Origin: Thermoanaerobaculia bacterium
GTDB taxonomy: Bacteria > Acidobacteriota > Thermoanaerobaculia > UBA5066
Reading direction: 5' to 3'
Length of the DNA stretch: 59,983 nucleotides
Assembly (NCBI GenBank): GCA_036385755.1
Contig: DASVJU010000202.1
Location: forward strand, 1-59,983
Of this stretch, positions 284-15,895 are shown piece by piece (positions within the stretch are counted from its first letter, which is position 1; the number at the start of each line of letters is the position of its first letter). Under the pieces are notes generated by a model that worked only from the letters and a program-made list of their open reading frames with translations, was not told where the DNA came from and made no database searches. The position numbers were made by a program, and so were the translations under genes.

Positions 284-1930
284 CTAGAACACCTTGCCGA
301 GCCGCGAGGCGAGCGTCGAGACCTTCACGTAGCCGAAGAAGCGCCCGCTGCCGAGGAGACCGAGCGCGGCCGGGACCTTCGTCCGCGGGTCGTTCGAGTA
401 GAGGGTTCCGAACGCCCTCTTCGTGAAGGTGTGGAAAGCCGAGTCGTACGGATACCACCATGGCATGGCGGCGGCGTTGCCCATGTCCACGCTCACGTGC
501 TTGATGTTGACGAGCTCGTGGAGGCCGAAGGCCGCGTGGCTGCGCCCGACACCCGACTTCTTGACGCCGCCCCAGGTCGCCGTGGGCTCGCCGAACGAGA
601 ACAAGTGATCGTTGATGGTGACCGTGCCGGCGTGCAGCTCCTCGGCGAGGCGCCGCGCCGTCCGCCGCGAGCGCGTCCAGCCGGACGCCGTGAGGCCGAA
701 CTCCGATTCGTTCGCGAGGCGGATCGCCTCCTCGAGGGAATCGACGACCATGACGGGCAGGAGGGGGCCGAACGTCTCCTCGTGCATGCAGCGCATCGAG
801 TGGTCGACGTTCGTCAGGACGGTCGGCGGGTACCACCAGCCTTTCGCGCGCGGCCGCTGGCCGCCCGTCAGGATCTTCGCGCCCTTCGCCTTCGCGTCCG
901 CCACGTGGGCTTCGACGAGGGCGCGCTGCGCCTCCGTCGTGAGCGGGCCCATGTCGGTCGTGGACGAGAGCGGGTCGCCGAGCCTCAGCGCCTTCGCCTT
1001 CGCGACGACTTTTCCGAGGAACTCCTCGGCGACGTCCTTCACGACGTAGACGCGCTCGACGGACCCGCAGGCCTGCCCCGCGTTCACGAACGCGCCCCAG
1101 ACGAGGCCCGACGACGCGCGGTCGAGGTCTGCGTCCGCCGCGACGACGGCAGGGTCCTTGCCGCCGAGCTCGAGGACGACACTCGTGAGGTTCTTCGCGG
1201 CCCGTTGCATGACGCCGATTCCCGTCTCCACGGCACCCGTGAAGAGGACCTTCGAGATCCCCGCGTGCTCCACGAGGCGATTCGTGTCCTCGCCGCCCGC
1301 GGTCACGACGTTTACGACGCCGGGCGGGATGCCCGCGCGCCGGCAGAGGTCGCCGACGGCGAGGCCCGTGAGCGCGGTCGCCGAGGCGGGCTTGAGGACG
1401 ACCGTGTCCCCCGCCGCGAGGCACGCGGCCACCTCGACGAACGGAATCCCGAACGGGAAATTCCACGGCGTGACGATCGCGACGACGCCGAGAGGCTCAA
1501 ACCGGACGAGACCCGACTTGTGGGAGAAGAGGATCTGCGCGTAGTCAACCGACCGCTCGGCGAGGATCTTGCCCGCATGCCGCGAGAGGTACCGGAGCGT
1601 GTCCGCGGCCGGGACGATGTCCACGGCTCGCGCCTCGCCGACCGGCTTGCCCTGCTCGGTCGCGATGAGCCGGGCGACGTCCTCGTGCGATTTCCGGACC
1701 TCCTCGAGCAGGCGCGCGAGGAGGCGCTGGCGCACGGCAATGGGCGTCGTCGACCACGAGAGGAACGCCTTGCGGGCCGAGGCGACGGCGGCGTCGATCT
1801 CGGCGGGTCCGGCGCGGAAGACGTCCGCGAAGGGCTCGCCCGTCGCCGGGTTCACGGCCTTGAACGTCCTTCCGGTGTCGACGTCCCGCCCGTCGATGAT
1901 CGGCTTGTTCGTGAACGCGCGCTTCTTCAA
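284..1930 (-). CDS. aldehyde dehydrogenase family protein with an extended C-terminal tail
   Basis: 548-aa track ORF. ALDH motifs VTPWNFPF, VVLKPAS, ELGGKDP, catalytic-Cys segment NAGQACGSVERVYV and EETFGPLLPV. An extra ~60-aa tail (PWWYPYDSAFH...) follows. Confidence 0.9.
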   Translation of the reverse strand: MKKRAFTNKPIIDGRDVDTGRTFKAVNPATGEPFADVFRAGPAEIDAAVASARKAFLSWSTTPIAVRQRLLARLLEEVRKSHEDVARLIATEQGKPVGEARAVDIVPAADTLRYLSRHAGKILAERSVDYAQILFSHKSGLVRFEPLGVVAIVTPWNFPFGIPFVEVAACLAAGDTVVLKPASATALTGLAVGDLCRRAGIPPGVVNVVTAGGEDTNRLVEHAGISKVLFTGAVETGIGVMQRAAKNLTSVVLELGGKDPAVVAADADLDRASSGLVWGAFVNAGQACGSVERVYVVKDVAEEFLGKVVAKAKALRLGDPLSSTTDMGPLTTEAQRALVEAHVADAKAKGAKILTGGQRPRAKGWWYPPTVLTNVDHSMRCMHEETFGPLLPVMVVDSLEEAIRLANESEFGLTASGWTRSRRTARRLAEELHAGTVTINDHLFSFGEPTATWGGVKKSGVGRSHAAFGLHELVNIKHVSVDMGNAAAMPWWYPYDSAFHTFTKRAFGTLYSNDPRTKVPAALGLLGSGRFFGYVKVSTLASRLGKVF

Positions 1931-1940
1931 GGCATCGTCC

Positions 1941-3068
1941 TCAAATCATCGCTCCGCGCGTGATGGCGTCCTTCTTCGTGCGCCAGAACGCCACGAGGCA
2001 CTGGACGTAGTCGGCGAAAGGCGGGCAGGCGACGTCGAAGCGGGCGAGGTCCTTCGTGGCCTGCTTCGCTTCGTAGTGCACCGGATGATCGAAGTAGTCG
2101 AGTGACTGGACGGGCATTCCGAACGCCTTCTGGATCTGTTTCGGCGCGAAGAGCAGCTTCGCGACGAGGAGAGGCACCGGGATGTAAAGGAAGGACTTGC
2201 CGAGCGCCTTCGCGAACATCTCCTCGATCTCGAAGGCCGTCGCAGGGCGCGGGTCCGTCAGATGGTAGGTCTTTCCGATCGCGCCCGGCCACGTCGAGAG
2301 GCGGGCGATCGACTCGAGTACGAAGTCCACAGGAACGAGGTTCACCTCCGCGTCGCCCGTCCCCACCTTGATGAAGGCGCCGGGGGACGGGAGCACGCCC
2401 ATCGCGTTCAGGGAGAAGTAGGGGCCGTCGAACTTCGCCGTTTCCCCGGTCTTCGAGTTTCCAACCACGATTCCGGGACGGTAGATCGCGGCGGGAATCC
2501 CGCTCTCCTTGACGGCCACTTCGGCGAGGAACTTCGTCTCCTCGTAGAAATTCTTGAACTTCTGTCCGACGTCGAGGTCGGTTTCGCGATACGTCCCGAC
2601 GGCGGTGCCCGACACGTAGGCCGTCGAGACGTAGTCGAGGCGCTCGAAGGCGGAAGCGCCTCCGAGGAATTCCAGGACGTTCTTCGTGCCCTCGACGTTG
2701 ATCCGGAGACCCACGTCGCGCGCCACCGCCAGGTCGTAAACGGCGGCGAGGTGGAAGCAGCCCGCGAGATCCTTCAGGAGAGACTTCGCCTGGGACGCCG
2801 CGAGCCCGAGACCGGGCGACGTGATGTCGCCCGTCACGAGGCGGATGCGGCCCTTCGTGTGGGGGTGCGACGCGCCAAGCGCCGCGACCGAGGCGTCGGC
2901 GGCCGAGAGGAACTTCTCCTGGACGAGGCACTGGAAGGTCGCCTCGGGGCGGAGCTCGAGGAGGCGCGGAATGAGCCGGGCCCCGATGAAACCGGGAAAC
3001 CCGGTGAAGAGGATGGTCCCGCCGGTGGAGCGTTCGGAGGCGGGCTTCCGGGTCTTGCGCGTAGCCAT
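1941..3068 (-). CDS. NAD(P)-dependent extended SDR (epimerase / thioester-reductase-like)
   Basis: 375 aa. Rossmann motif ILFTGFPGFIGARL (GxxGxxG) and catalytic YxxxK (YEETK). ATG at 3066-3068. Lies 10 nt upstream of the ALDH gene. Confidence 0.8.
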   Translation of the reverse strand: MATRKTRKPASERSTGGTILFTGFPGFIGARLIPRLLELRPEATFQCLVQEKFLSAADASVAALGASHPHTKGRIRLVTGDITSPGLGLAASQAKSLLKDLAGCFHLAAVYDLAVARDVGLRINVEGTKNVLEFLGGASAFERLDYVSTAYVSGTAVGTYRETDLDVGQKFKNFYEETKFLAEVAVKESGIPAAIYRPGIVVGNSKTGETAKFDGPYFSLNAMGVLPSPGAFIKVGTGDAEVNLVPVDFVLESIARLSTWPGAIGKTYHLTDPRPATAFEIEEMFAKALGKSFLYIPVPLLVAKLLFAPKQIQKAFGMPVQSLDYFDHPVHYEAKQATKDLARFDVACPPFADYVQCLVAFWRTKKDAITRGAMI

Positions 3069-3136
3069 TTGGGTGGAAGTCTACTGCCGGCGCAGACGAG
3101 CCGTTTTCCCCCGCGTCTGCGACGGAGTCGCGCCGG

Positions 3137-4183
3137 TCAGCGCTTCGGCTCGGGCGCCGGTGCCGGCACCGCGGCGGCCGGAAGGGGCGCCTTGCCGAGC
3201 AGGAAGTTCACCATCTCGTTTACGTTCATCGTGGAGACGTTCGAACCCGGGACGATGAGGATCTTCTTCTGCGCGAACTGCCGCGCGACCTGCATCTTCA
3301 CGTACGCGTCGCCGCCGAGCTTGGAGAGCGCCTCGGCCTCCTTGCGGACGCCTTCGGCCTCCGCCTGAGCGACCGCGATCGTGGCCTTGGCCTGGTTCGT
3401 CTTCGTCTGGTAGTAGCCGTCCGCCTCGTTCCGGATGCGCCCGGCCTCGCCGAGAGCGTCCTCGAGGCGCTTGTTCCACTCGGAGCGCTTCCCTTCCAGC
3501 TCGCTCTGCTTCTGGACTGCCATGTTCTTCTGCTGCTCGATGAGCGTCTGGACGTCCGCCTCGGCCTGTTTCTGGGCGTTGATGGCGTCCTGGTACTCCT
3601 TGTCGAACCGGTGCTGCTGGACCTGGAGCTGGTCGATGAAGACCCCGAACGGAGCGAGCTCCTTCGAGAGCTGGTCCTTCGCGCTCGCGGCCATGCGGTT
3701 CTTCACCGTGACCTGGTAGTACTCCTCGCTCGTGATCTCGTTGAACACGTCCCGGATGATGGAGCGCGAGATCGGCCGGACGAGGCGCTCCTTGATCTCG
3801 AGCGCCGACTGTCCGATGTGCGAGATGAGGTAGTCCGCCTTCTTGGGGTCGATGCGCCACATGACGTTCACGTCGATGTAGACGTTGTTGCCGTCCTTCG
3901 TCTTGAACGTGATGTCGTCGCGGCCCAGCCGGTCGCCCTCGCTCGCGTTCGCGGTCATGAAGAGGTTCTGCTGCGAAATCGGGAGCGTGGCCCAGCTGTT
4001 GATGACGGGCAGGAAGAAGTAGACGCCGCCGGGCGGGTAGACCTCCTGCGTCCCGCGCTTTTCGAAGAACCAGACGAGGCGCGTGCGGACGCCGACTTCC
4101 GTCGAGGTCGTCGCCCCGCAGCCCGAGAGCGTGAAGGCGAGCACGAGCGCCGCCCCCGCGCGGAGAGACCGGGCGCGCGTCAC
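3137..4183 (-). CDS. SPFH/Band-7 domain lipoprotein (HflC-like)
   Basis: 348 aa. Lipobox LAFTLSGC, then an SPFH core (DDITFKTKDGNNVYIDVNVMWRI...) and a Q/A/E-rich coiled coil. The GTG start overlaps the upstream stop (GTGA, 4180-4183). Confidence 0.85.
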   Translation of the reverse strand: MTRARSLRAGAALVLAFTLSGCGATTSTEVGVRTRLVWFFEKRGTQEVYPPGGVYFFLPVINSWATLPISQQNLFMTANASEGDRLGRDDITFKTKDGNNVYIDVNVMWRIDPKKADYLISHIGQSALEIKERLVRPISRSIIRDVFNEITSEEYYQVTVKNRMAASAKDQLSKELAPFGVFIDQLQVQQHRFDKEYQDAINAQKQAEADVQTLIEQQKNMAVQKQSELEGKRSEWNKRLEDALGEAGRIRNEADGYYQTKTNQAKATIAVAQAEAEGVRKEAEALSKLGGDAYVKMQVARQFAQKKILIVPGSNVSTMNVNEMVNFLLGKAPLPAAAVPAPAPEPKR

Positions 4184-5280
4184 TTTCCACCCCCGGCCGG
4201 GGCGTTTCCCGGGTTGACGCCGATGACGCTCCAGGAGTTCCGGATGAACGCGATGTACTGCTCGGGCGTCATCACGGCGCCCTCGATGTTCTCGAACATT
4301 TTCGCCGTCTCGAGCGCGACGACGTAGCGCCCTCCCGAGGAGTTGAGCGCGTCGGCTTTCAGCCTTTTGGCCTCGGCGGCGGCGACGTTGATCTCCTTGT
4401 CGCCCTTCGAGCGCACCTGCGAGGAATAGAGCTCGGCCTCCGCGCGGATCTTCGAGATCTTCGCGCTCACCTCGGACTCGGCGATCGTGATCGCGGCGTT
4501 GCCCTTGGACTCGATCTGTCCGAGCTTCGCCTTCTCCTCGTTGACGAGGCTCTCCTTGCGGTTTTTCTCGGCGAGCTGGACGGCGACCTTCTTGTCGTGG
4601 AGCGACTTCTCGTAGGCCGGCACGTAGGCATAGTTCCGGAGGAGAAGCTTCTCGACCCGGAAGCCCCGCTCGGCGAAGCGCTCCTTGAGCGTCTTCTCCG
4701 CCTCGAGGACGGCCGCGATGCGGATCGCCTCGTTGTAGAAGGACTCGGCGTTCATTTTCCCGAGCGTCGTCAGGACGCCGTTCTGGAACGTGTTGATGAC
4801 GAACGCCTGGACGTAGAGCGTCCCCCAGCCGAACTCCTTCGCGACCTGCACGGGGTCCGCGATCGAGTAGAGGAGCGTGACGTCCGCGCTCACGGCGTAG
4901 CCGTCGGACGTCTGGACGTTGATCGCGTCGGTGGTCCGGTGCGTCTCGCGCCCGAGGACCTTCTCGCGGAGGCGCGCGCGCTCGCTGGACTCGCTCTGGG
5001 TGCCGGCCGCCTCGAGGACGTGCATCTCCCGCGAGAACGTGTGCATCGTGACGCCGGGCCCGACCACGTAGAGGCCCGGTCCGAACGTCTTCTCCACGAT
5101 TCCAACCTTGAAGCCGAACTTCCGCTGCTCGACCCCCATCTCGTTGGGAAGGACGCGGACCGTACAGGCCGTGTAGAGGAAGACCACGGCGACGACGCCG
5201 AGGACGCCCGTGATGCCGAGACGCTTCACGGACGTCTTGATCGCGTCGAGCGCGGTCCTCTTGCCGGAGACCTCCACCAT
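4180..5280 (-). CDS. membrane-anchored SPFH/Band-7 domain protein (HflK-like)
   Basis: Track ORF 4180..5586 trimmed to ATG 5280 (MVEVSGKRT...). The longer N-terminus is Arg/Gly-rich and overlaps the previous gene. Has an N-terminal TM (ITGVLGVVAVVFLYTA), an SPFH core and a C-terminal coiled coil. 366 aa. Confidence 0.85.
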   Translation of the reverse strand: MVEVSGKRTALDAIKTSVKRLGITGVLGVVAVVFLYTACTVRVLPNEMGVEQRKFGFKVGIVEKTFGPGLYVVGPGVTMHTFSREMHVLEAAGTQSESSERARLREKVLGRETHRTTDAINVQTSDGYAVSADVTLLYSIADPVQVAKEFGWGTLYVQAFVINTFQNGVLTTLGKMNAESFYNEAIRIAAVLEAEKTLKERFAERGFRVEKLLLRNYAYVPAYEKSLHDKKVAVQLAEKNRKESLVNEEKAKLGQIESKGNAAITIAESEVSAKISKIRAEAELYSSQVRSKGDKEINVAAAEAKRLKADALNSSGGRYVVALETAKMFENIEGAVMTPEQYIAFIRNSWSVIGVNPGNAPAGGGK

Positions 5281-5981
5281 CACGAGCCTCCCTCCATCGT
5301 CTTCTGAGCCCGCGACTGCGCCGCCCGGACGCCGGCGTCCGGCGCCGCGGTCTCGGCCGTTTCGCCGCCCGTCAGGTAGTGCGAGTCGATGCGGGCGATC
5401 TCGTCGTCGGCCCTTGCGACCACCCGGTTCAGCTCCCCTTCGTACTGCCGGACCACGAGGTACTTCCTCACGTTCGGGAAGACGAGGCCCGCGAGCATGA
5501 ACGGGATGATCCACTCCTTGGACCAGAGCGGGATGAACGGGGCGAGGATGACGAGCGCGCCGACGACGACGCCGGCGACCGCCCACCCGAAGCGCTCGAG
5601 CCCGTGAAACGGCTCGGCCGCGAGGTAGAAGTCGTTCCGCTCGCGGGGCGTGAACTTCGACGCGAGGCGCACGTATGCGGGGATCACGACCTTGCGGATC
5701 AGGTCGTCCACATTCCGGAAGAACGCGTCCCGGACGGGGGCGTCCAGGAGCGACTCCTCTCGGCGGATGACGTCCTTGAGGCGCGGGATCTCCTTTTCGT
5801 AGAGGCCCGTGAAGAACTCCTCCGGCGCCTCGCCCTGCACTCCGAGAAGCCGGTCGTTCAGCCCGGGCCGGCAGTTCTCGAAGGACTGTAGGAGCGAGTC
5901 CACGAACCCGTCCAGGGTCCGGATGGGGGCGGAGGGGCCGCGGGCCAGCATCCGCAGGGCGCGCGCGATCGTCGTGTTCAC
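5280..5981 (-). CDS. hypothetical two-TM membrane protein
   Basis: 233 aa. Soluble N-domain, hydrophobic segments WAVAGVVVGALVILAPFIPLW and IIPFMLAGLVFP, and a charged tail. No family recognised. Its stop shares 1 nt with the next start (TGATG). Confidence 0.7.
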   Translation of the reverse strand: MNTTIARALRMLARGPSAPIRTLDGFVDSLLQSFENCRPGLNDRLLGVQGEAPEEFFTGLYEKEIPRLKDVIRREESLLDAPVRDAFFRNVDDLIRKVVIPAYVRLASKFTPRERNDFYLAAEPFHGLERFGWAVAGVVVGALVILAPFIPLWSKEWIIPFMLAGLVFPNVRKYLVVRQYEGELNRVVARADDEIARIDSHYLTGGETAETAAPDAGVRAAQSRAQKTMEGGS

Positions 5982-6026
5982 GGTGCGGCGGATTCTATCG
6001 CCAGGACGTGAAGGAGGCGCGCCGTG

Positions 6027-7739
6027 TCAGCGACGGCTGCCGACGGTCGCTCGGAGGAGGCGCAGCCTCGCGTCCAGCTCCTCCGGGGTCATGTTCGCGT
6101 ACTTGGCGGGCAGGAGGCGGCGGCTGGAGGATTCGAACACCGCCAGCAATTCCATGTACTCCAGAAGCTCGACGTCGCGGCTCGGGAAGTAGTCGTGAGC
6201 GGCGTTCGTGAAGTGCTTTGCCTTCACTTCCGCGTCGCCACTCTGCTGCGGGGGCCCATTCGGAGCCCCCGCGCCCCCTGCCTCCTGCGCCGCGTCGTCG
6301 TTCGCCATCAGGATGACCGCCTCGACATCCGCGTTCGAGTAGCCCACGAGCTTTCTCGAGAAGTCCTCGCGCAGCGCCGTGAAGTCGACCTTCGTCGAGA
6401 TGTGGTTTTTCTTCACCTGCGCCCGAGCGACGTTCTCCACCTCCTCCGGCGTCTGCGAATAGAGGAAGGGGATCTTCTTGTCGAGGCGGCCGGCGCGCTT
6501 GAGGTCCACGTCCAGCTTGTCGGGACGGTTCGTCATGACGAGAAAAAGGATGCGTCCCCGGTTCGACGTGTCGGACATGAACTCCTTGATGCGCGCGATG
6601 ACGCGCGAGGAGGTGCCGCCGTCGGACTCGCCCTCGCCGGACCCGAACGCGCGGTCGCCCTCGTCGATGATGACGACGACCTGCCCGATGGCCTTGATGA
6701 CGTTCAGGATTTTCTCGAGGTTCCCCTCCGTCGCGCCCACCCACTTGCTGCGGAAGTTCTTCAGCTTGATGGTGGTGAGGCCGCACTCCTTCGCGAACGC
6801 CTCCGCCACGAACGTCTTGCCGGTGCCCATCGGCCCCGTGAAGAGGATGCCCATGGGCACACGGCTCGTCCGGCACTCGCGGATGTTCTCGGCGATGAGC
6901 ATGAGGTCTTTCTTGACCTCTTCCATTCCGCCCACGACCTCGAATCCGTGCTCGGGCACGACGAACTCCACGAGGCCGAAGCACTCGCGCTCGAGGATCT
7001 CGCGCTTCCGGATCCCGATGAGCCGGTCTGCCTCCTGCCGGTCGGCGTCCGTCATGCCGGCGGAGAGAAGGCTCGTGATCTGGATGGCCTTCAGCCCCGC
7101 GGTCTGGCCCGCATAGCGGTCCGCGTCTTTCTGGGAAAGATCGGGGTCCGCCTGCTTCGCCGCCTGGCCGCGAGTGGCCGCGTCCGGCATCGGGACTTCG
7201 ACCACGGCGACTTTGGGGTTGGAGAGGAGCTTCGGCGAGAGGTCCGTCAGGTTCTCCGCCACGAGGAGCACCACGTTGTCGCCCTTCTCGATCTCGGGCA
7301 GGAACGACCAACGGTGAAGCGTGACGAGCGCGGCGCGATCAGAGTCGCCCTGGAAGGCCGGATCGCCCGTGGGCGCGAGCGCCTCGGCGTACTCGAGGAC
7401 GACCGCCGTCTTGTTCGACGCCGAGAGGAGCTTCTCGAGGGCCGGCAGGACACGGTCCTTCTGCGTGACGCCGACGAGGTCGTCCATCGCGTCCGCAAAC
7501 TGCCCCCTCTTCGTGAACCGGACCCCGGTGGAGACGTTATAGAGCAGCACGGCGTCCTTCGAGTCTTTCAGGAGAACGTCCGTCAGGAAATTCGAGAGCG
7601 AGAGCATCTTCCCGCCGTACAGCACGACGTCGTAGACGTTCCCGTGCAGGACGAACATGGACGCCTCGTTCCGCAGGTACCGGCGGCGGAGGTCCTCGGC
7701 CCAGGCCGGGAGCACCCGCGCGGGCGAAGTCTCGACCAC
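6027..7739 (-). CDS. classical-clade AAA+ ATPase with a degenerate N-terminal AAA-like half; no TM or protease domain
   Basis: 570 aa. Walker A GPMGTGKT, Walker B VVIIDEGD and SRH region [22 protein letters not shown] in the C-terminal half. The N-terminal ~270 aa are fold-like but motif-less ([22 protein letters not shown]). Confidence 0.9.
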
Positions 7740-7740
7740 G

Positions 7741-8667
7741 TCACATCTCCCGTTCGACGCCCATGCCGTTCAGGATCTTCTCCGTGTCCTGTGCGGTCTG
7801 GCGTATGGCTTCGACGCCGTCGAGCAGCTCGTCGAGCTGGCCCGAGAGCTCCTGTGGCGATTGCATGGTGACGATCTGGTCCGCGATGAGCTGGAAGGAG
7901 TTCTCGATGAGGTCGAGCTGGCCGCGGGCCACGCTCAGGTAGCTCCGGATCTCCTGCACCTTTTCGAGCCGCCGCAAAACGACCGAGAGGTTCTTCTTCG
8001 CGATCGTGGTCCTGGGGTCGGTGGCATCGCCGCCCTTGGACGACTGCTCATACCGGCGGCGGTCCTTGTCCAGCGCGTCGGTGTCTATCGAGCCGAGGTA
8101 GGACTCGTAGCGCGCGCACGTGACTGCCATGTCCACGAACGCATCGACGAGCCGGTCGGTCTTCACGAGCTCGCTGCGAAGCAGATCTCCGGTGAAGGAC
8201 GGGTTCTGCGCCGCAAGGCGCCGGATCTCCTCCTGGCGCGCCACGAGCGCGTTGACGCGCTGGTGCTCCTCGTCGCCCACGGTGGCGAGTCGCCGCGCGC
8301 GCTCCTGTGCCTGCAGAGCGCTCTTGAGCTTCTCGAATTTCGGGTCCCAGAGGATGTGCTTCAGGCGCTCGTTGTCCGGCGCGTGGAGGAGCCACAGGCC
8401 TTCGAGGCCGAGCGCCACCACCGCGAGGACGGGATTCAGCGTGAGGCCCGCCGCGGCGAGCGCGCCGGTGAAGAGCGACAGGTTGTACGGGTTCGTGAAG
8501 GCCATCTTCAGGTAGGGATTCCTGTCGAGAACCGCGCCCTTCGCGAACTGGCGCGCGGCGTCGCCGATGCCTTCCTGCACCGAGGGCGCGACCGGGGCCG
8601 CCGCCGTTTTCGGCGCGGCTTTCACGGGCGTCTTCGGCGTTTCGATATTTCCCATGGGTCGACCCAA
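7741..8667 (-). CDS. hypothetical membrane-hairpin / coiled-coil protein
   Basis: 308 aa. A/P-rich N-tail, hydrophobic hairpin LSLFTGALAAAGLTLNPVLAVVALGLEGLWLL, then ~200 aa of helical, heptad-like sequence. Lies 1 nt upstream of the AAA+ gene. Confidence 0.7.
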   Translation of the reverse strand: MGRPMGNIETPKTPVKAAPKTAAAPVAPSVQEGIGDAARQFAKGAVLDRNPYLKMAFTNPYNLSLFTGALAAAGLTLNPVLAVVALGLEGLWLLHAPDNERLKHILWDPKFEKLKSALQAQERARRLATVGDEEHQRVNALVARQEEIRRLAAQNPSFTGDLLRSELVKTDRLVDAFVDMAVTCARYESYLGSIDTDALDKDRRRYEQSSKGGDATDPRTTIAKKNLSVVLRRLEKVQEIRSYLSVARGQLDLIENSFQLIADQIVTMQSPQELSGQLDELLDGVEAIRQTAQDTEKILNGMGVEREM

Positions 8668-8676
8668 TGATGCGCC

Positions 8677-9573
8677 CTAGGACGCCTGCGTATACAGAAG
8701 GTCGAGGAGCTTTTTCTCGACCGCCCGGAACTCGGGCGCCGACTTCAGCTCGATGTTCCGGACCTTGAAGTATGGAACGTCCACGCGGTGCAGGAGACGC
8801 GCGGGGCGCGAGGACAGGATGTAGACGGTGTCCGCGAGGTAAACGGCCTCGGAGACGTCGTGGGTCACGAAGAGGATCGTCGGGTCCTCGGTGCGCGAGA
8901 CGTCGAGGAGGAGCCCCTGCATCCCCCAGCGCGTCTGCGGGTCGAGCGCCCCGAACGGTTCGTCCATCAGGATGACGCGAGGCCGGTTGATGAGCGTGCG
9001 TGCGATGGCCACGCGCTGTTTCATGCCGCCCGAGAGGTCCTTCGGATACCGGTCGGCGAAGTCCGCGAGGCCCACGGCCTTGAGGTACTTGTCCGATCTC
9101 TCACGGCGCTCGGCCGCGGACTCGCCATGGAGCCTCAGGCCGTATTCCACGTTGTCGCGGACGGTCAGCCATCCGAAAGACGTGTAGGCCTGAAAGACCA
9201 TCCCGCGGTCGCGGCCCACACCTACCACGGGCTGCCCGTCCAGGAGGATCTCTCCGTTCGTGGGCGGGAGGAGTCCCGCGACCGCCTTCAGGATCGTGGA
9301 CTTCCCGCAGCCCGAAGGTCCGAGGAACACGACCACCTCGCCCACACCGGGCTTGTCCTCGACGTCGAAGGAGACGTCGCGCACGGCCTCGGTGCCGTCG
9401 CCGTCGCGGTTGATGTAGGTGACCGACAGGTCCTTCACGCGCAGCTTCGGCGCCGCGCCTTTCAGGTCGGCGCGATAGCTGGGTTTCTTTCCGCCCGCGG
9501 GACCGACGTCGACGGCGACAGTGCCCGGCTCGCCCGTCTGGGGCGCCGGCTTCGGCGCGTCATCCTCCGTCAC
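8677..9573 (-). CDS. ABC transporter ATP-binding protein (NitT/TauT type)
   Basis: Track ORF 8677..10272 trimmed to GTG 9573 (VTEDDAPK...), which forms a GTGA overlap with the permease stop. Walker A GPSGCGKST, signature LSGGMKQRV, Walker B ILMDEPFGALD, H-loop THD. Confidence 0.85.
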   Translation of the reverse strand: MTEDDAPKPAPQTGEPGTVAVDVGPAGGKKPSYRADLKGAAPKLRVKDLSVTYINRDGDGTEAVRDVSFDVEDKPGVGEVVVFLGPSGCGKSTILKAVAGLLPPTNGEILLDGQPVVGVGRDRGMVFQAYTSFGWLTVRDNVEYGLRLHGESAAERRERSDKYLKAVGLADFADRYPKDLSGGMKQRVAIARTLINRPRVILMDEPFGALDPQTRWGMQGLLLDVSRTEDPTILFVTHDVSEAVYLADTVYILSSRPARLLHRVDVPYFKVRNIELKSAPEFRAVEKKLLDLLYTQAS

Positions 9574-10382
9574 GCCTCGACCTCCCGCCACCGGAAGAGG
9601 ATCCGCGAGACGGTGCGGATGATGAAGTCCGTCAGAAGGCCGATGCCGCCGATGACGAGGAGTCCCGCGAAAGACCACGAGGCCTTCTGGTGCGTCCGCG
9701 CGAGCTCCACCATGTAGCCGAGGCCGTGCTCCGGGTTCACGGCCTCGGCGAGGATCACGTACGTCCAGGAGATGGCGTTCATCACGCGGAAGGAGTCGAA
9801 GATCTCGGGGAGGGCGGACGGAAGCAGCACCGTGCGCACGACCTGTACGCGCGACGCGCCCAGCGTGAGCGCCGTTTGCACCAGCTCCTCGGGCACCGCG
9901 CGAATCGCCGTCACGACGACCGGCAGGAGATAGACGAAGACCCCGAGAAACAGGAACGCGATCTTCTGCTTTTCGTAGATCCCGAACCAGAGGATGAGGA
10001 GCGGGATGAAAGCCGAGATCGGCATGTACCGGAGCGGCGCCACGACCGGCTCGAAGAACCGGTTGATGGGCTCGAAGGCCCCCATCAGGATGCCGAGCGG
10101 CAGCGCAAGGGAAGAAGCCAGAAGAAACGACAGGAGAATTCTCTTGGTGGAAACGAGGACCGCGCTGCCGAGGTCGTACTGAAGAAAAAGCTGCAGCGTG
10201 CCCTTGACCACCTCCGTCGGAGAGGGCAGGAAATCGGGCGGCGCGAGGCCGCCATACGAGGCGACACACCATGCACCGAGGACGAGCGCCGGCGCGACGA
10301 GGCCGAGCACGAACGCCGTCGAGCGCGGCAGCGGGGCGCGGAGGGCGAAGAGATCGCCCCGGCGCCCCTTCTTGTCACTCAC
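9570..10382 (-). CDS. ABC transporter permease (NitT/TauT type)
   Basis: 270 aa. Multi-TM binding-protein-dependent transport permease layout. The GTG start shares 1 nt with the upstream TAG (10380-10384). Confidence 0.85.
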   Translation of the reverse strand: MSDKKGRRGDLFALRAPLPRSTAFVLGLVAPALVLGAWCVASYGGLAPPDFLPSPTEVVKGTLQLFLQYDLGSAVLVSTKRILLSFLLASSLALPLGILMGAFEPINRFFEPVVAPLRYMPISAFIPLLILWFGIYEKQKIAFLFLGVFVYLLPVVVTAIRAVPEELVQTALTLGASRVQVVRTVLLPSALPEIFDSFRVMNAISWTYVILAEAVNPEHGLGYMVELARTHQKASWSFAGLLVIGGIGLLTDFIIRTVSRILFRWREVEA

Positions 10383-12028
10383 TATTCACTCGCCAGCACC
10401 ACCTTGATGTCGGTCCTGCGGTTGAGCTGGCGGCCCGACTCCGTCGTATTCGGGGCCACGGGCTGCGTCGAGCCGCGCCCGATCGTCTGGAAGCGCTGCG
10501 GCGGGATGTTCGGGAAGTTCTTCAGGACGTAGTTCTTCACGGCCAGGGCGCGCCGCTCGGAAAGCGTCATGTTCGAGGTCGGGTTGCCCGTGGCGTCCGT
10601 ATTCCCTTCCACGCGGAGATACGTGTTCCCGAAGGACGTCATCGTCTCGCCGAGAGCGTCGAGGACGAAGTTGGAGCCCGGCATGATCTCGTCCGAGCCC
10701 GGCGTGAAGTGAATCTGGATCTGCTTGTTGAGAATGGCGCGATCCGAGGAGGACGGCGCCTTCGCCGCGATCTTCTGCTCTTCCACTTTCTGCTGCGGGT
10801 AATTCCCCGCGAGGGCCGCGAGGAAGCGCGTGTCGGCCCAGTCCTTCGCTTCGACCGGCCGCGTCACGAGCCCTTTCTTCCGCCAGATGACGAAGGCCGT
10901 GTCGAAGAGCGTCTCGTAATGAGCCTTCCCGCCTGAAATGCCATAGAACTGCGCGTTGTCGGCGTAGGGAGTGAGCTTCAGGCCCGAAAGCATTCCCGAG
11001 ACCGTGTCCGTGTCGAGTTTCAACGCCTTGGCGACGACGGCATACGCCGCGTTCGGGTCGGACTTGATCATCTCGATGCCGTCGAACCAGCCATGGATGA
11101 AGTCACGCAGCGTGTCGGGAGCGCGATCGATGAGATCCTGCCGCGCGCAGAGCGTGTCCGCGATGATGTTCGTCGCCGCCGTCGTCGAGACGAGGACGTG
11201 CGCCTCGTCGCCCCGCGCCGTCACGGCCGCGGAAAGGTCGGGCTCCCACGTCACGGCCGCGTCCACCTGCTTTGCCTTGAACATGGCCGCGGCGGCCGGC
11301 GCGTCCTGCGTGAAGATGATGTTCTTTTCGAGGGCCGCACGGTCGTCGGAGGAGAGACCCGACTGCGCGAGAAGGTAGAGCAACAGGAAATGCGAGGGCG
11401 TGAACTGGGTGCAGGAAATCTTGTGGCCTTTGAGGCCTTCGACGGACTTGATCGACGACAGGGACACGATGCCGTCCCCGCCGCGCGACCAGTCCTGCAT
11501 CACGATGGACTTCGCCTTCTGGTTCTGCTCAGCGAGGATGGAAGCCTCGCGCGCCCAGTTGTCGACCGTGTTCCACATGATGTCGACGTCGCCCTTGCGG
11601 AAAGCCGCGAGCTTGGCGGCAGGGTCTTCCAGGAGGACGAACTTCACGTCGAGCCCATAGGTCTGCTTGTAGCGCGAGGTCGCGCCGCTCTCCATGCCGT
11701 TTGCGGCCACGATGCCCGGCGCGTGGCCGGCCCAGGTGTTGATCGCCACGACCAGCGGCCGGTTGAGCTTCCCGGAGCCGACGAGCGCCGCGCCCGACAC
11801 GCCCGCCGCGCCCTTGCCGCGTTCCGGGTCGGGCGGGGCGCTCCGGAGCGCGTTGAAGTCGTCGGATGAGACGGCGTTTCCGGACTTTGCTGCCGCTGTC
11901 CCGGCCGCGGTCTTGTCCGCGCCCGCCCACTTGCTGATGTCTCCGCCCTTGTAATGCCACAGGGCGTAGCCGATGACGCCGAGGATGACGACCGTGATGA
12001 AGAACTTGGCGAAAGGAGTGAGTTTCAT
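10382..12028 (-). CDS. TM-anchored ABC substrate-binding domain fused to a C-terminal OmpA-like peptidoglycan-binding domain
   Basis: 548 aa. N-terminal TM FAKFFITVVILGVIGYALW, a central NMT1/SsuA-like periplasmic binding region, and a C-terminal OmpA/MotB signature (LRVEGNTDATGNPTSNMTLSERRALAVKNYV...NRRTDIKV). Confidence 0.85.
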   Translation of the reverse strand: MKLTPFAKFFITVVILGVIGYALWHYKGGDISKWAGADKTAAGTAAAKSGNAVSSDDFNALRSAPPDPERGKGAAGVSGAALVGSGKLNRPLVVAINTWAGHAPGIVAANGMESGATSRYKQTYGLDVKFVLLEDPAAKLAAFRKGDVDIMWNTVDNWAREASILAEQNQKAKSIVMQDWSRGGDGIVSLSSIKSVEGLKGHKISCTQFTPSHFLLLYLLAQSGLSSDDRAALEKNIIFTQDAPAAAAMFKAKQVDAAVTWEPDLSAAVTARGDEAHVLVSTTAATNIIADTLCARQDLIDRAPDTLRDFIHGWFDGIEMIKSDPNAAYAVVAKALKLDTDTVSGMLSGLKLTPYADNAQFYGISGGKAHYETLFDTAFVIWRKKGLVTRPVEAKDWADTRFLAALAGNYPQQKVEEQKIAAKAPSSSDRAILNKQIQIHFTPGSDEIMPGSNFVLDALGETMTSFGNTYLRVEGNTDATGNPTSNMTLSERRALAVKNYVLKNFPNIPPQRFQTIGRGSTQPVAPNTTESGRQLNRRTDIKVVLASE

Positions 12029-12040
12029 GTTTCCTGTTCC

Positions 12041-12754
12041 TTACATGGTCTTCTGGGGTTGGGCCGCCTGCTGGGCGGCTTTTTTTGCCTTCAGCTCGGC
12101 GAGCTGCTGCTTCGCCTGGACGTCACCGGCCTGCGTCTTGAGGGCCGCGAGACGCGCGTCGAGCGAGCTTCCCGACAGTTCCTGCCCGAGGTTCGCCTCG
12201 GCGATCGTGTTCTTGATGTGCTCGCGCACGTTGTCGAGCGCCTTCACGTCGGCATCCACCGAGAGGCCGTCGAGCTGTTCCTGGATCCGGAGCCGCGCCT
12301 GCGCCGACATCATCCGCGCGAGCATGACGTCGCGCTCGGCCTTCAGCTTTCTGATCTCGCCCTGCACGTTGAGGAGCGACTGCTTCGCCGCGTCGGCGTC
12401 TTTGCTTGCCGTCCCGAGATCGCCCTGCAGCTCGGCAGCCTCGGCCGTGAGCGAGTTCTTCCGCTGGATGAGGACGACGGCCAGGTCGTCCTGGTTCGTC
12501 TCGACCGCGGCGTTCAGCTCGAGCTCGGTCTGCGCGAGATCCTTCGTGGACTTCTTCAGCCGCTCGTCGATGTCCTCGCGCCGACGGATGATGGCCGCGG
12601 TGGCGGATTTCAGCTTCGCGTACTTCTCCACCATGGAGTTGATGGCGTTCTCGTAGGCGATCTCCGGATGCTCCTTTTCGATGTCCGAGATCCAGATGGA
12701 CAGGAAACCCCGCCAGAGATTGCCGAGACGCTGAAAAAGACCGATTCCCGCCAT
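12041..12754 (-). CDS. pspA: PspA/IM30/Vipp1 family protein (ESCRT-III fold)
   Basis: Track ORF trimmed to ATG 12754, preceded by AAGGAAAGGA 6 nt upstream. 237 aa, all-helical. N-terminal amphipathic helix [19 protein letters not shown] and a heptad-rich body typical of PspA/IM30. Confidence 0.9.
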
Positions 12755-12770
12755 GTGATGTCCTTTCCTT

Positions 12771-13394
12771 TTACGGGCCCTGTGGCTCGACGAGCTTCGG
12801 CGAGTCGCGGACGACGCGCGCCACCTTCTCCTGCCCGAAGAACTCCAGGACCCTCTGGATTCCGAGTTTCTTTTCATTGCAGGCCTGGACGACCGCGAGC
12901 TGTTCCGCCGTCCGGCGCTCCATGACCGACTTGATCCGCCGGATTTCTTCCTCGAACTGCGTGATCCGCTTCTCCGACTCCTCGTGCACGTTCTGTGTGT
13001 CGGCGGCGCCCGCGCGGATATAGGCCTCGAGAGCCTGGATCTCCTGCACCGCCGCCTCGATGATCTTGTCGACCGGGACTCCGAAGGCCTTCAGCGAAGC
13101 CTCGACGATCTGCTTCTTCACCGCCGCGTCGGTCCCGGCGGGAAGGGCTTCGAGGAGCTCGGCGGCCTTTCCCACGCGGCCCTGCTCCTCGACGTCGATA
13201 CCCGCGGCTTCGTAGACCTTCGGGAAGTCCACGCGCCCTCCCGGCGCGGCCGGGGGCGCCGTGACGAAAGCGGGAGGCTCGGGCGCGGCCGGCGGGACGG
13301 CCTCGTCCGGAGAGGGCGCGGGAGCCGCCGTGTCGTCCTCCTGGACGACAAACCACCCCATCACGGTGGAACCCCAACTCTTCCTGTCGCTCAT
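12771..13394 (-). CDS. hypothetical protein (PspA-adjacent; hydrophobic N-tip, P/A linker, helical C-domain)
   Basis: Track ORF trimmed to ATG 13394 ([17 protein letters not shown]...). An alternative ATG lies 33 nt downstream. No family recognised. Lies 16 nt upstream of pspA. Confidence 0.6.
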
Positions 13395-13404
13395 GGAGCG
13401 GCAA

Positions 13405-13433
13405 ATCTTATCAAGCCGATCCGGGGGGCACAA
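13405..13433 (-). promoter_or_regulatory. candidate sigma70-like promoter for the pspA-containing array
   Basis: On the minus strand: TTGTGC (13433-13428), 17 nt spacer, TAAGAT (13410-13405), about 11 nt before ATG 13394. It sits in the only intergenic gap of 60 nt or more at the head of the array. Weak match. Confidence 0.25.
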
Positions 13434-13454
13434 AAAGGGAGGCGAAGGGTCAGT

Positions 13455-14249
13455 CTAGAGAGCGTGGGAGAGCGATGGATCGTGGAAGAGGCGATCGCGG
13501 AAGGCCCGGATCCGCACGAGCATTTCGGGGGGCTGGGCGCAGGGCATCCCGTCGAGCGAGAGGATCGGCGCCGCCGTCGTGAGGGAACCGAGAAGGACGC
13601 CCCCCTCCCGAAGATGCTCCCCGCCGATCGGGGCGACGGAGGCATGCCCTTCGAAGAAGGCGGCGGCCGTCACGCTCGGGAGGACGCCCTCCGGCGCGAG
13701 GACGGGCGTGCCTCCGTTCCACGCGGCGAGGCCTGTCGTCGTGCCCTCGAGGTATCGCCCGTCGTGGCCCCGGAAGAGGCCCTCGTCGGCGCCCGCCTTT
13801 TTTGCGAGACGCCCGCCCTGGATCGCGGCGAAGTAGCTCGTGGACTTCACCGCGGGCGTGTCGCGCTGGAGGTCGAGCGGGAGCGACACCGCACGCGAGC
13901 CGTCCCGGCGCGCGAGGCGGCTCTCGGGGATGGGGATCACGTATGCGTCGAGGCGCCACGACGCCGGATCCTCCACGTCCTCTCTCGCGGCGAGCCAGGT
14001 GAGGCGCAGGCCCGACTGGGTGTCGGCCCTCGGCGCGAGGCCGTCGACCGCCTTCCTTGCCGCCGCCTCCATCGTGTCGCGCGAAGGCGCGGGCAGCTCG
14101 AGTCTCTTGAGGCCCCGGAGGAGGCGGTCGACGTGCGGATCCCACAGGATCGCGCGCCGGCCGGCGAGAAGCGCGGTCTCGAAGAATCCGAAGCCGCGCT
14201 GCACCGCGGGCGAAAGAAACGGAACGGGGGCGTATTCAACGGCCATCAT
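13455..14249 (-). CDS. pabC: aminodeoxychorismate lyase / class IV aminotransferase family
   Basis: 264 aa. Fold-type IV layout (GFGFFETALL..., EGTTTGLAAWNGG). Overlaps the pabB stop by 14 nt. Confidence 0.7.
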   Translation of the reverse strand: MMAVEYAPVPFLSPAVQRGFGFFETALLAGRRAILWDPHVDRLLRGLKRLELPAPSRDTMEAAARKAVDGLAPRADTQSGLRLTWLAAREDVEDPASWRLDAYVIPIPESRLARRDGSRAVSLPLDLQRDTPAVKSTSYFAAIQGGRLAKKAGADEGLFRGHDGRYLEGTTTGLAAWNGGTPVLAPEGVLPSVTAAAFFEGHASVAPIGGEHLREGGVLLGSLTTAAPILSLDGMPCAQPPEMLVRIRAFRDRLFHDPSLSHAL

Positions 14250-15450
14250 TCACCTTCCCGGCGGCGAGCGCCGCCATGGCTGCGCCGAACTCCCGCGACT
14301 TCGATTCCATCTCGCTCCATTCGGCATCGGGCTGCGAGTCCCACACGATTCCGCCTCCGGCGTGGTAGTCCACTGTATCCCGGCCGACGAGCGCCGTGCG
14401 GATCGCCACGTTGAAGACGGCACGGCCGTCGCCGCGCACGAATCCGGCCACGCCGCAATAGGCACCGCGCGCGACGGGCTCGAGGTCGTGGATGAACCGA
14501 AGAGCCGCCCGCTTCGGCGCGCCCGTGATCGAGCCTCCGGGCAGCGTCGCGCGCAGGACGTCGGCGAGGCCCGTGCCGGGGCGGAGTCGGGCTTGCACGG
14601 CCGACTCGAGGTGATGGAGATGGCGGAACGATCGAAGCGCGCGGAGCGCCGTCGTCTCGACGGTCCCCGGTTCCGCCACCTTCCCGAGGTCGTTCCTCAG
14701 GAGGTCCACGATCATCACGTTTTCGGCGGCGTCTTTCGGGGAGCAGAGCAGGTCCGCGCGGCGGCGTGCGTCTCCTTCTTCGTCGGATGCGCGCGCGATC
14801 GTGCCCTTGATCGGCTTCGTGACGACACGCCGCGCCGCGAGATCGACGTCGAGGAAGAGCTCCGGAGAGTTCGACACGACGGCCCAGTCTCCCCCGCCGT
14901 CGGCGAGGGTCACCGCGAACGGCACGGGATTGTCGGTGTAGAGCGCGTCCGCGAGAGCGAAGGGGTCGACGCGCGACGCAAAACGCGTGCGGCGCGAGAG
15001 ATTGACCTGGTAGACGTCGCCGCGGGCGATGGCGTCACGGATGGCCTCCACGCCGCTTCCCCACCCGCTCGAAGAGAGCGACTGCTCCGCAGTCGCCGGT
15101 TCTTTGAAGGTGAAGAGAGAAGACGCTGCGGGCTGGCGTCGCGCGGCGACCGCAGCGGCTCCTCGGCGGGTGTCGAAGACGGAGAAATCCGCGAAAGGTA
15201 GAAATTCATGCTCGCGCACGAGGGACGTCGACCCTTCGAGGTAGACGCCCGCTTCGTAAGAGATGAATCCCGCGGCCAGCAGATTTGGGTTGCCGCTCGC
15301 GGCGATCTCGTCGAGAGCAGCGAGAACGCCGGACAACTGCTCCGGCCTCTCGGCGCATATTCTCTTCTCTTCACCCTCTAAGAAAATCTTCCCTCTTCTC
15401 TTTCCTCCCAGTCCCCAACCGTCCCCCCCGAATAAGACTTTCATCGGCAT
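14236..15450 (-). CDS. pabB: aminodeoxychorismate synthase component I (short form)
   Basis: 404 aa. Chorismate-binding core with PIKGT (the Lys is diagnostic for PabB versus TrpE PIAGT), plus SPKDAAENVMIVDLLRNDL, GGSITGAPK and GGGIVWDS. The N-terminal ~30 aa are encoded by a repeat copy. Confidence 0.85.
   Translation of the reverse strand: MPMKVLFGGDGWGLGGKRRGKIFLEGEEKRICAERPEQLSGVLAALDEIAASGNPNLLAAGFISYEAGVYLEGSTSLVREHEFLPFADFSVFDTRRGAAAVAARRQPAASSLFTFKEPATAEQSLSSSGWGSGVEAIRDAIARGDVYQVNLSRRTRFASRVDPFALADALYTDNPVPFAVTLADGGGDWAVVSNSPELFLDVDLAARRVVTKPIKGTIARASDEEGDARRRADLLCSPKDAAENVMIVDLLRNDLGKVAEPGTVETTALRALRSFRHLHHLESAVQARLRPGTGLADVLRATLPGGSITGAPKRAALRFIHDLEPVARGAYCGVAGFVRGDGRAVFNVAIRTALVGRDTVDYHAGGGIVWDSQPDAEWSEMESKSREFGAAMAALAAGKVNDGR
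15357..15409 (-). repeat. GA-arm / TTTC-N3-GAAA element, solo copy in the pabB 5' region
   Basis: The minus strand reads GGGAGGAAAGAGAAGAGGGAAGATTTTCTTAGAGGGTGAAGAGAAGAGAAT. It is translated in frame as GGKRRGKIFLEGEEKRI. Confidence 0.7.
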
Positions 15451-15460
15451 CGTCTAGTCT

Positions 15461-15895
15461 ATGGGGATCGTGCGCGACCCACACCCCGCCGTCGAGACGC
15501 CCATTCAGGTGCGCTACGCCGAGACCGACGCCCAGCGCGTCGTGTACCACGGCAACTACATCATCTGGTTCGAGGTCGCGCGCACGGCGTTCTGCGAACG
15601 CGCCGGGTACCCCTACCCGCGGATGGAGGCAGAGGGCTCCTTCATCACCGTCACCGAGGTGCATGTGCGGTATCGCCGCTCGGTGCGCTACGGCGACACG
15701 GTGGTGGTGCGGGCGCGGATGACCGCGCTGAAGAGCCGCGGATGCACCTTCGCCTACGAGGTCGTCCTGCCGGACGGCCAGCTCGCGGCCGAGGGCGAAA
15801 CGCAGCACCTCTTCCTCGACGACGCCGGCAAGCCGCGCACCGTTCCCGAGGCGATCGCGGACGCGTTTCGCTCGTTCGGCGGGCTTTCCGCCTAG
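15461..15895 (+). CDS. acyl-CoA thioesterase, 4HBT/YbgC-like hotdog fold
   Basis: 144 aa. VRYAETDAQRVVYHGNYIIWFEVARTAF matches the YbgC/4HBT catalytic Asp motif. Confidence 0.85.
   Translation: MGIVRDPHPAVETPIQVRYAETDAQRVVYHGNYIIWFEVARTAFCERAGYPYPRMEAEGSFITVTEVHVRYRRSVRYGDTVVVRARMTALKSRGCTFAYEVVLPDGQLAAEGETQHLFLDDAGKPRTVPEAIADAFRSFGGLSA

Follow-up and report, generated by a model that had tools for sequence, protein, structure and literature searches.

Ten co-directional genes of a Thermoanaerobaculia contig appear to comprise a conserved PspA-centred module and a separate SPFH triad

Ten successive open reading frames (ORFs), here named g1 to g10 in transcription order, lie on the minus strand between positions 13394 and 3137 of a 59,983-nt contig (GC content of about 66%) from a metagenome-assembled genome (MAG) of the class Thermoanaerobaculia (Acidobacteriota); the window denotes this whole contig. 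They encode, among others, a PspA homologue, an anchored ATP-binding cassette (ABC) importer, a classical-clade AAA+ ATPase and two SPFH proteins (Table 1). The question that this locus raises is whether the ten genes form a single system, since the first-pass annotation of the window had read them as one coupled unit for membrane maintenance which could not be matched to a described system. Our results led us to another answer. The array probably consists of two juxtaposed conserved modules, module A (g1 to g7) and module B (g8 to g10), and it seems to us rather likely that module A represents, in the Acidobacteriota, an envelope module built around PspA that has been recorded in silico before, with a mechanism that is predicted.

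We compared the array with its relatives. A scan with an alignment of g6, in which one genome per species was used, returned 197 relatives, and the best 80 of these 197 loci were compared. They came from the Thermoanaerobaculia, Vicinamibacteria, Pyrinomonadaceae and Holophagales, and 79 of the 80 belonged to the Acidobacteriota. A g6-bearing contig of 4.3 kb (L027) was labelled Stellaceae (Alphaproteobacteria), and this label is probably a binning error. The proteins of the window were then run by tblastn against the loci, and 53 acidobacterial g6-centred loci had enough flanking sequence to be read. The comparison showed that g1 to g7 were colinear and in the same order in 41 to 42 of these 53 loci, in four acidobacterial groups, an arrangement that is far beyond chance. 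Only one of them (L001) had the triad formed by g8 and the two SPFH genes at a distance of up to 10 kb from g6; the triad was missing from the other 52. The gene that follows g7 was usually convergent, on the opposite strand, and varied with the lineage, and the genes that precede g1 varied too. The 45-nt gap between g7 and g8 is the exact point at which these comparative data divide the array. The first-pass annotation had itself named a loss of synteny in related genomes as the result that would speak against its ten-gene unit; synteny was lost for g8 to g10 and kept for g1 to g7, so that tight coupling stood for the first seven genes and fell for the last three.

The triad was also found alone, with no gene for PspA or for the AAA+ protein within 10 kb, on six contigs (L081, L082/L083, L084/L085 and L087). 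One of these triads (L082) is on JAXLQV010000001.1 (GCA_046331465.1) and a PspA module (L077) is on JAXLQV010000003.1, and the shared accession prefix indicates that both contigs come from one MAG. There are 461 homologues of g8, and in every context read g8 was directly followed by two Band_7 genes. The order seen in the window, module A followed by module B between the same flanking genes, recurred only in L086 and L088, in which g8 was 88% and 96% identical, respectively, to that of the window. In L001, the closest species-level relative, the triad was directly upstream of g1 (2418-5283), not downstream of g7. Module B is a separate unit that adjoins module A only in a narrow Thermoanaerobaculia lineage, and it forms a conserved three-gene module of the Acidobacteriota in its own right, apparently uncharacterised and with varied genomic contexts.

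These data bear directly on the alternative that the ten genes encode one membrane-maintenance machine, in which the SPFH pair scaffolds or cages the AAA+ protein, anchors PspA, or both, by analogy with HflK/C-FtsH and YdjI-PspA. Links between PspA and SPFH proteins are documented in B. subtilis, the ten genes share one strand with a gap of only 45 nt and no predicted terminator at the boundary, and the two modules also adjoin each other in L086 and L088 and, with the triad on the opposite side, in L001. In addition, one type of archaeal ESCRT locus carries an SPFH gene (PMC10936438). However, the lack of synteny disfavours such a machine, and so does the topology of its parts. Both SPFH domains are predicted to face the periplasm, because g9 has an N-terminal transmembrane (TM) anchor and g10 a lipobox, whereas the AAA+ protein has neither a TM segment nor a signal peptide and PspA is placed on the cytoplasmic face of the membrane; SPFH caging therefore does not fit the predicted topology. 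No TM segment was detected in g7 by the hydropathy scan and no peptidase domain by Pfam, unlike the membrane AAA+ zinc protease of the HflK/C-FtsH complex, and adjacency of SPFH and AAA+ genes was absent in 52 of the 53 loci. The comparison with B. subtilis PspA-YdjGHI, in which a conserved SPFH gene of the pspA operon is accompanied by the partners TPM/YdjH and YdjG, fared no better, as there are no TPM or zinc-ribbon partners among the products. The adjacency on which the first-pass annotation had built both analogies is specific to one lineage, and we consider the single machine improbable.

Taken by itself, module B resembles HflK/HflC in its two adjacent and overlapping SPFH genes, in their predicted periplasmic orientation and in a weak similarity of g10 to the HflK model (2e-6; 27 bits, where the cut-off is 159). 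It differs in that one partner is a lipoprotein, in the absence of an adjacent FtsH gene, and in its conserved third partner, the uncharacterised membrane protein g8. In the latter, a soluble domain at the N-terminus is followed by a hydrophobic membrane region (about residues 130-175) and a short C-terminal tail. This protein had been described as a two-TM protein; the membrane region itself was found again, but only one segment (134-152) passed the hydropathy scan. The start codon of g9 is most likely ATG 5280 (366 aa), as called in its homologues. We infer that module B is an HflK/C-like scaffold that faces the periplasm, with g8 as a likely partner.

For module A, a published counterpart was found. 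Ravi et al. 2024 (mSystems, PMC11237479) list in their Table S3 a neighbourhood from Candidatus Handelsmanbacteria (OGG56892.1) with the same seven-gene order as g1 to g7, namely a protein X, PspA, a protein with a TM segment or signal, a substrate-binding protein (SBP) domain and an OmpA domain, a permease, an ABC ATPase, a TM plus helical protein, and an inactive-AAA plus AAA protein. The window agrees with it in the X gene before PspA, the anchored SBP-OmpA protein with permease and ATPase, the pairing of an inactive and an active AAA+ cassette, and the gene order. The published example belongs to a different phylum, whereas the locus of the window belongs to the class Thermoanaerobaculia of the Acidobacteriota. 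The paper gives this one example and no experiments, and it includes neither a core of g1, ABC genes and g6 that lacks PspA and the AAA+ protein nor an adjacent SPFH triad. A literature search for experimental studies of module A or of a PspA-associated classical AAA+ protein returned none. The neighbourhood of module A has thus been published before, though only from computational work, and the locus is neither undescribed, as the first-pass annotation had suggested, nor a ten-gene unit.

Pfam assigned families to g2, g3, g4, g5, g7, g9 and g10 and bore out all the domains that had been named, and the lipobox of g10, the single N-terminal TM helix of g9 and the TM hairpin of g6 were also found. 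No family of Pfam or NCBIfam was obtained for g1, g6 and g8. The score of g2 against TIGR02977 was far under the cut-off, and g2 therefore does not qualify as an equivalog of PspA from E. coli. A C-terminal motif of g2, [ED]SSLDxRLxxL[KR] (window 12041-12160), varied little or not at all among 57 orthologues. We take this motif to resemble the MIM1 (MIT-interacting motif) consensus of Vps2-type ESCRT-III, a likeness that we keep as a curiosity only, since a related sequence stands here in PspA of E. coli too and g7 has no MIT domain. Directly upstream of the PspA gene, g1 codes for a protein with two conserved parts, an N-terminal hydrophobic/aromatic motif and a helical domain of about 130 aa, which are joined by a variable linker rich in Pro and Ala. 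This pairing of g1 with PspA was kept in 48 of the 53 acidobacterial loci, and among the 61 flank-sufficient loci, which include a divergent clade without PspA, 56 had g1 upstream of either the PspA or the SBP gene. A single weak Pfam match of g1 to RdfA (E = 3e-3) was absent in five orthologues and was rejected as a chance match.

The AAA+ protein g7 was examined for its relationship to Vps4. It comprises a degenerate N-terminal cassette (residues ~12-250) and an active classical-clade cassette (~260-490), after which comes a helical C-terminal region that is conserved. Walker A (GPMGTGKT) and Walker B (VVIIDEGD) were found only in the C-terminal cassette, an aromatic pore loop (SKWVG) is present, and the top PDB sequence matches of residues 260-486 were the D2 domains of Cdc48/p97 (1e-42). 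In the N-terminal domain, the strand ends in LHGNVYD and the P-loop lysine is absent. The AlphaFold2 (AF2) model of g7 had a mean predicted local distance difference test (pLDDT) of 67, with blocks of the N-domain mostly between 70 and 88, and gave this domain a beta-alpha-beta arrangement; Foldseek aligned 565-600 columns of the model to D1-D2 of p97/VCP/Cdc48 (~1e-21). A comparison of the two halves of g7 by hhalign, made with a low-diversity profile, was negative, and the score against the CdvC model (4.6e-15) was far below its cut-off. Because of the structural alignment to p97 D1-D2, the AAA-like N-domain and the missing P-loop lysine, we assign g7 to an "inactive AAA + AAA" architecture, which excludes an MIT-domain Vps4. 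On the model, g7 is a p97-like protein with a degenerate N-terminal and an active C-terminal cassette, not an orthologue of Vps4.

A p97/Cdc48-like architecture with an intact pore loop would also suit a membrane-protein extractase or quality-control unfoldase, Msp1-like or Cdc48-like, that acts on g6, on the transporter or on other membrane proteins rather than on PspA. Consistent with this, four acidobacterial loci had g6 followed by g7 with no PspA gene within 6 kb upstream under the filters used; there was no PspA anywhere in two of them (L025 and L059), and PspA was farther upstream, behind insertions, in the other two (L030 and L044). However, the genes for PspA and the AAA+ protein were present together in 47 of the 53 acidobacterial loci and absent together in the divergent clade, and in Firmicutes Ravi et al. 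also describe PspA and a tandem AAA+ protein as a dyad of their own (PMC11237479). An extractase that ignores PspA is, in our judgement, quite improbable.

The protein that all variants of the module share is g6, which is the invariant hub of module A. Its start is most likely ATG 8655, which gives 304 aa as in most homologues, while TTG 8667 would give 308 aa. It begins with a conserved N-terminal motif, which is followed by a TM hairpin and then by four long cytoplasmic helices; in the AF2 model, the hairpin is formed by helices 60-76 and 79-95, and pLDDT values are 80-90 over residues 120-270. The g6 family comprises 636 clusters at 50% identity (E <= 1e-3). An alignment of 50 diverse members showed conserved polar positions at N62, E89 (which falls in TM helix 2), N226, the invariant R233 and D263. 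Such a pattern points less to a generic coiled coil than to a specific interface or a role in charge sensing. Ravi et al. label a protein of the g6 type "TM+Snf7" (PMC11237479).

Comparison of the natural variants of the module showed which genes can be separated from each other. In L089, only PspA followed by g6 was found, and their coding regions abut with no spacer. In L049 and L061, g1-PspA and g6-AAA+ were kept and the ABC genes were absent. Together with the Archangium locus PspA-PBPB-TM/Snf7 of Ravi et al. (PMC11237479), these loci indicate that g6 accompanies PspA independently of the transporter. The gap left by the ABC genes in L049 (7137-9932) is filled by an opposite-strand gene for a flavin amine oxidase of 931 aa, which recalls the links between PspA and polyamines that are discussed by Ravi et al. 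(PMC11237479). [quoted passage not shown]

A divergent sub-clade of g6, about 39% identical to g6 of the window, was scanned against metagenome contigs, which gave 34 loci. Its homology to g6 of the window was confirmed by hhalign (probability 100%). In seven flank-sufficient loci and many shorter ones, this clade had, as far as the flanks reached, g1, the SBP-OmpA gene, the permease, the ATPase and g6, with no PspA gene between g1 and the SBP gene and no AAA+ gene after g6. A convergent gene with an OmpA-like domain was observed right after g6 in L090, L092, L097-L100, L105, L108, L114, L115, L119 and L120 of this clade. Over the 61 flank-sufficient loci, PspA and the AAA+ protein were both present in 47 and both absent in eight, and six were mixed; in this sample the two are gained or lost as a pair. 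We propose that PspA and the AAA+ protein are facultative additions to an older core of g1, the ABC genes and g6.

The main rival explanation starts from this same clade. It makes the solute importer (g3 to g5) the core of the module, with g1 and g6 as its dedicated accessory or regulatory subunits and with PspA and the AAA+ protein as lineage-specific neighbours that answer to the same stress, for example osmotic stress, and have no physical partnership with g6 or the transporter. Besides the clade that dispenses with PspA and the AAA+ protein, this explanation accounts for the position of g6 directly after the ABC ATPase gene wherever the transporter is present, and the near-invariant polar residues of g6, among them the glutamate of its second TM helix, fit a subunit interface more than they fit ESCRT-III polymers. 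It is opposed by the bare PspA-g6 dyad of L089, by the two loci in which g1, PspA, g6 and the AAA+ gene persist without the ABC genes, and by the Archangium locus. We regard a transporter-centred module as unlikely, and retain the PspA-centred one.

Among the transporter genes, the permease g4 matched SaoP (5e-38) and TauC (5e-36) in NCBIfam, the SBP g3 matched SsuA_fam (1.5e-23), and the ATPase g5 matched the taurine ABC ATPase model (1.4e-63); all were below cut-off. The OmpA domain of g3 is at residues 441-537 (PF00691, 2e-16), NMT1, Phosphonate-bd and NMT1_2 matched at about residues 123-333, and a single N-terminal TM helix (6-24) was detected by the hydropathy scan.

In the PspA-centred module that we favour, g6, perhaps with g1, would be a membrane-embedded hub that brings PspA to the inner membrane on its cytoplasmic side. 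PspA would polymerise there and stabilise or repair stressed membrane, and g7, by means of the one cassette that is active and of the aromatic pore loop, may thread subunits out of the PspA assembly, the g6 assembly or both, which would recycle them as Vps4 does for ESCRT-III. The SBP would be pinned both to the inner membrane and to peptidoglycan, and the importer could couple the system to the uptake of a small solute, possibly an osmoprotectant. This solute might be of the taurine, sulfonate or nitrate type; alternatively, the SBP and the importer may report on the geometry of the envelope.

A bolder form of this reading makes module A a bacterial counterpart of ESCRT-III/Vps4, with g6 as nucleator, PspA as polymer, g7 as recycling motor and the ABC importer as a link to turgor or envelope spacing. 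We advance it only tentatively, as a possibility with more against it than for it. As in archaeal CdvB/CdvC and in eukaryotic CHMPs and Vps4, a polymer former of the ESCRT-III superfamily is encoded together with a classical AAA+ protein, and an ESCRT-III-fold subunit is provided by g2 through its PspA_IM30 domain. The expected logic, by analogy, would be the ATP-driven extraction of subunits. Pore loop 1 of Vps4, which we take to be KWMG, shares its aromatic character with SKWVG of g7. [quoted passage not shown] On the other hand, Vps4 has an MIT domain and a single AAA cassette, whereas g7 has two cassettes of the p97 type and no MIT domain. A Vps4-like ATPase, according to the same 2025 review, "appears absent in bacteria" (PMC7619361). 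The Meth_adaptin ESCRT loci of archaea (Makarova et al. 2024, PMC10936438), in which ESCRT-III and an AAA+ protein are found with an SPFH protein and a ProX osmoprotectant SBP, parallel the themes of the window but have a true Vps4, adaptin-like proteins and a different SBP family; the parallel is not one of locus homology.

Several observations weigh against the division into two modules or against the mechanism proposed for module A. Co-transcription across g7/g8 is possible in the organism of the window, as no terminator was seen between the two genes, and the occurrence of modules A and B side by side in two different arrangements among close relatives, within one narrow lineage, is a weak hint of functional linkage. 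The published Snf7 assignment of g6 could not be reproduced with any of four approaches: Pfam searches of 27 g6 members at E <= 10 gave nothing relevant and no Snf7 or PspA; profile searches of PDB sequences with close and with diverse alignments gave no ESCRT-III match; Foldseek of the AF2 model against PDB gave a best E of 0.078 with no ESCRT-III structure in the top 50; and hhalign of g6 against the PspA alignment gave a probability of 0.3%. The membrane hairpin and the long helices are present in g6, without a match to Snf7, PspA or ESCRT-III in these searches. Since g7 has no MIT domain, recognition of PspA by g7, if any, must differ from that of Vps4. The core function may be transport and not membrane remodelling, because a whole clade keeps g1, the ABC genes and g6 without PspA or the AAA+ protein. 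The co-occurrence of PspA and the AAA+ protein comes from essentially two clades and not from many independent events, and both the protein-protein contacts and the transcription of module A are predictions drawn from sequence.

Two further comparisons were made with known systems. PspB and PspC, or LiaI, are membrane anchors of the PspA homologues of E. coli and B. subtilis. Both the classical E. coli Psp system (PspF-PspABC) and the B. subtilis Lia system (LiaI-LiaH) resemble module A in combining a PspA homologue with a small membrane protein as a possible anchor. They differ from it in that no domain of PspB, PspC, PspF, LiaI or LiaF was found among the ten products, that g6 belongs to an unrelated family, and that an ABC importer and an AAA+ protein without a regulatory role are encoded in addition. 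The absence of PspB, PspC and PspF from the ten products had been noted in the first-pass annotation and held in Pfam and NCBIfam searches. An anti-phage defence island which combines AAA+, OmpA/MotB-like and SPFH parts was also considered, as PADLOC gave weak matches of ZorB/MotB to the OmpA domain and of IetA/TRIP13 to the AAA+ cassette. These matches are to generic domains only, no defence-specific component was found, and the housekeeping context is fixed and the conservation vertical across acidobacterial classes, which together make a defence function extremely improbable.

At the level of the window, the ORF calls confirmed ten tightly packed minus-strand ORFs. The junctions from g1/g2 to g9/g10 were +16, +12, -1, -4, +21 (or +9), +1, +45, -1 (or -4) and -4 nt. 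The tight co-directional run extends beyond the ten genes on both sides (Table 1), so that strand and spacing alone do not delimit a unit here. A scan of the g7/g8 spacer revealed neither a full promoter of the sigma70 type nor a terminator on the minus strand; as a whole, the promoter and terminator scan was uninformative, with no sigma70-like site and with terminator counts equal to background. A TAGAAT hexamer is present in this spacer about 10 nt upstream of the GTG of g8. Over the whole 60-kb window (1-59983), the tRNA scan detected none and the Rfam scan found no family at gathering score.

Table 1. Positions of the genes of modules A and B and of the neighbouring features in the window.
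Feature	Position	Strand	Length	Description	Support or remark
Upstream flank	13455-15895 region	-		Chorismate-binding enzyme (pabB-like) and class-IV aminotransferase (pabC-like)	Same strand as the array
4HBT thioesterase	15461-15895				First strand switch
g1	12771..13394	-	207 aa	First gene of module A	ORF and translation
g2	12041..12754	-	237 aa	PspA/IM30	PF04012, E = 1.4e-19, residues 5-225
g3	10382..12028	-	548 aa	NitT/TauT (SsuA/NMT1)-type SBP with TM anchor and OmpA-like peptidoglycan-binding domain	
g4	9570..10382	-	270 aa	ABC permease (TauC/SsuC/SaoP-like)	BPD_transp_1, 3e-20; 1-nt overlap with g3
g5	8677..9573	-	298 aa	ABC ATPase (TauB-like)	ABC_tran, 4e-33; 4-nt overlap with g4
g6	7741..8655	-	304 aa	TM hairpin and cytoplasmic all-helical domain of ~200 aa	
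g7	6027..7739	-	570 aa	Tandem AAA+ ATPase	PF00004, 9.5e-27, residues 298-425
g7/g8 spacer	5982..6026	-	45 nt	Boundary of modules A and B	Widest junction of the array
g8	5280..5981	-	233 aa	First gene of module B	Without a family in Pfam, NCBIfam and PADLOC
g9	4180..5280	-	366 aa	SPFH/Band_7 protein with N-terminal TM anchor (helix 26-44)	PF01145, 2e-15; overlaps stop codon of g8
g10	3137..4183	-	348 aa	SPFH/Band_7 lipoprotein	PF01145, 3e-25; lipobox LSGC; 4-nt overlap with g9
Downstream flank	284-3068	-		NAD_binding_4 reductase and aldehyde dehydrogenase	Same strand as the array

The results provide a parts list of seven genes instead of ten, with g6 as the invariant hub, and a set of natural variants, without the transporter or without both PspA and the AAA+ protein, which can guide experiments as to which pairs matter first. 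Module A offers an experimental entry point to the question of how bacterial PspA/Vipp1 polymers are disassembled. This module is widespread in soil Acidobacteriota, where 197 species-level genomes have a g6 relative, and it pairs PspA with a classical AAA+ protein whose pore loop is competent. If module A were indeed a counterpart of ESCRT-III/Vps4, it would overturn the view that bacteria lack a Vps4-like partner of PspA and would supply the missing disassembly factor.

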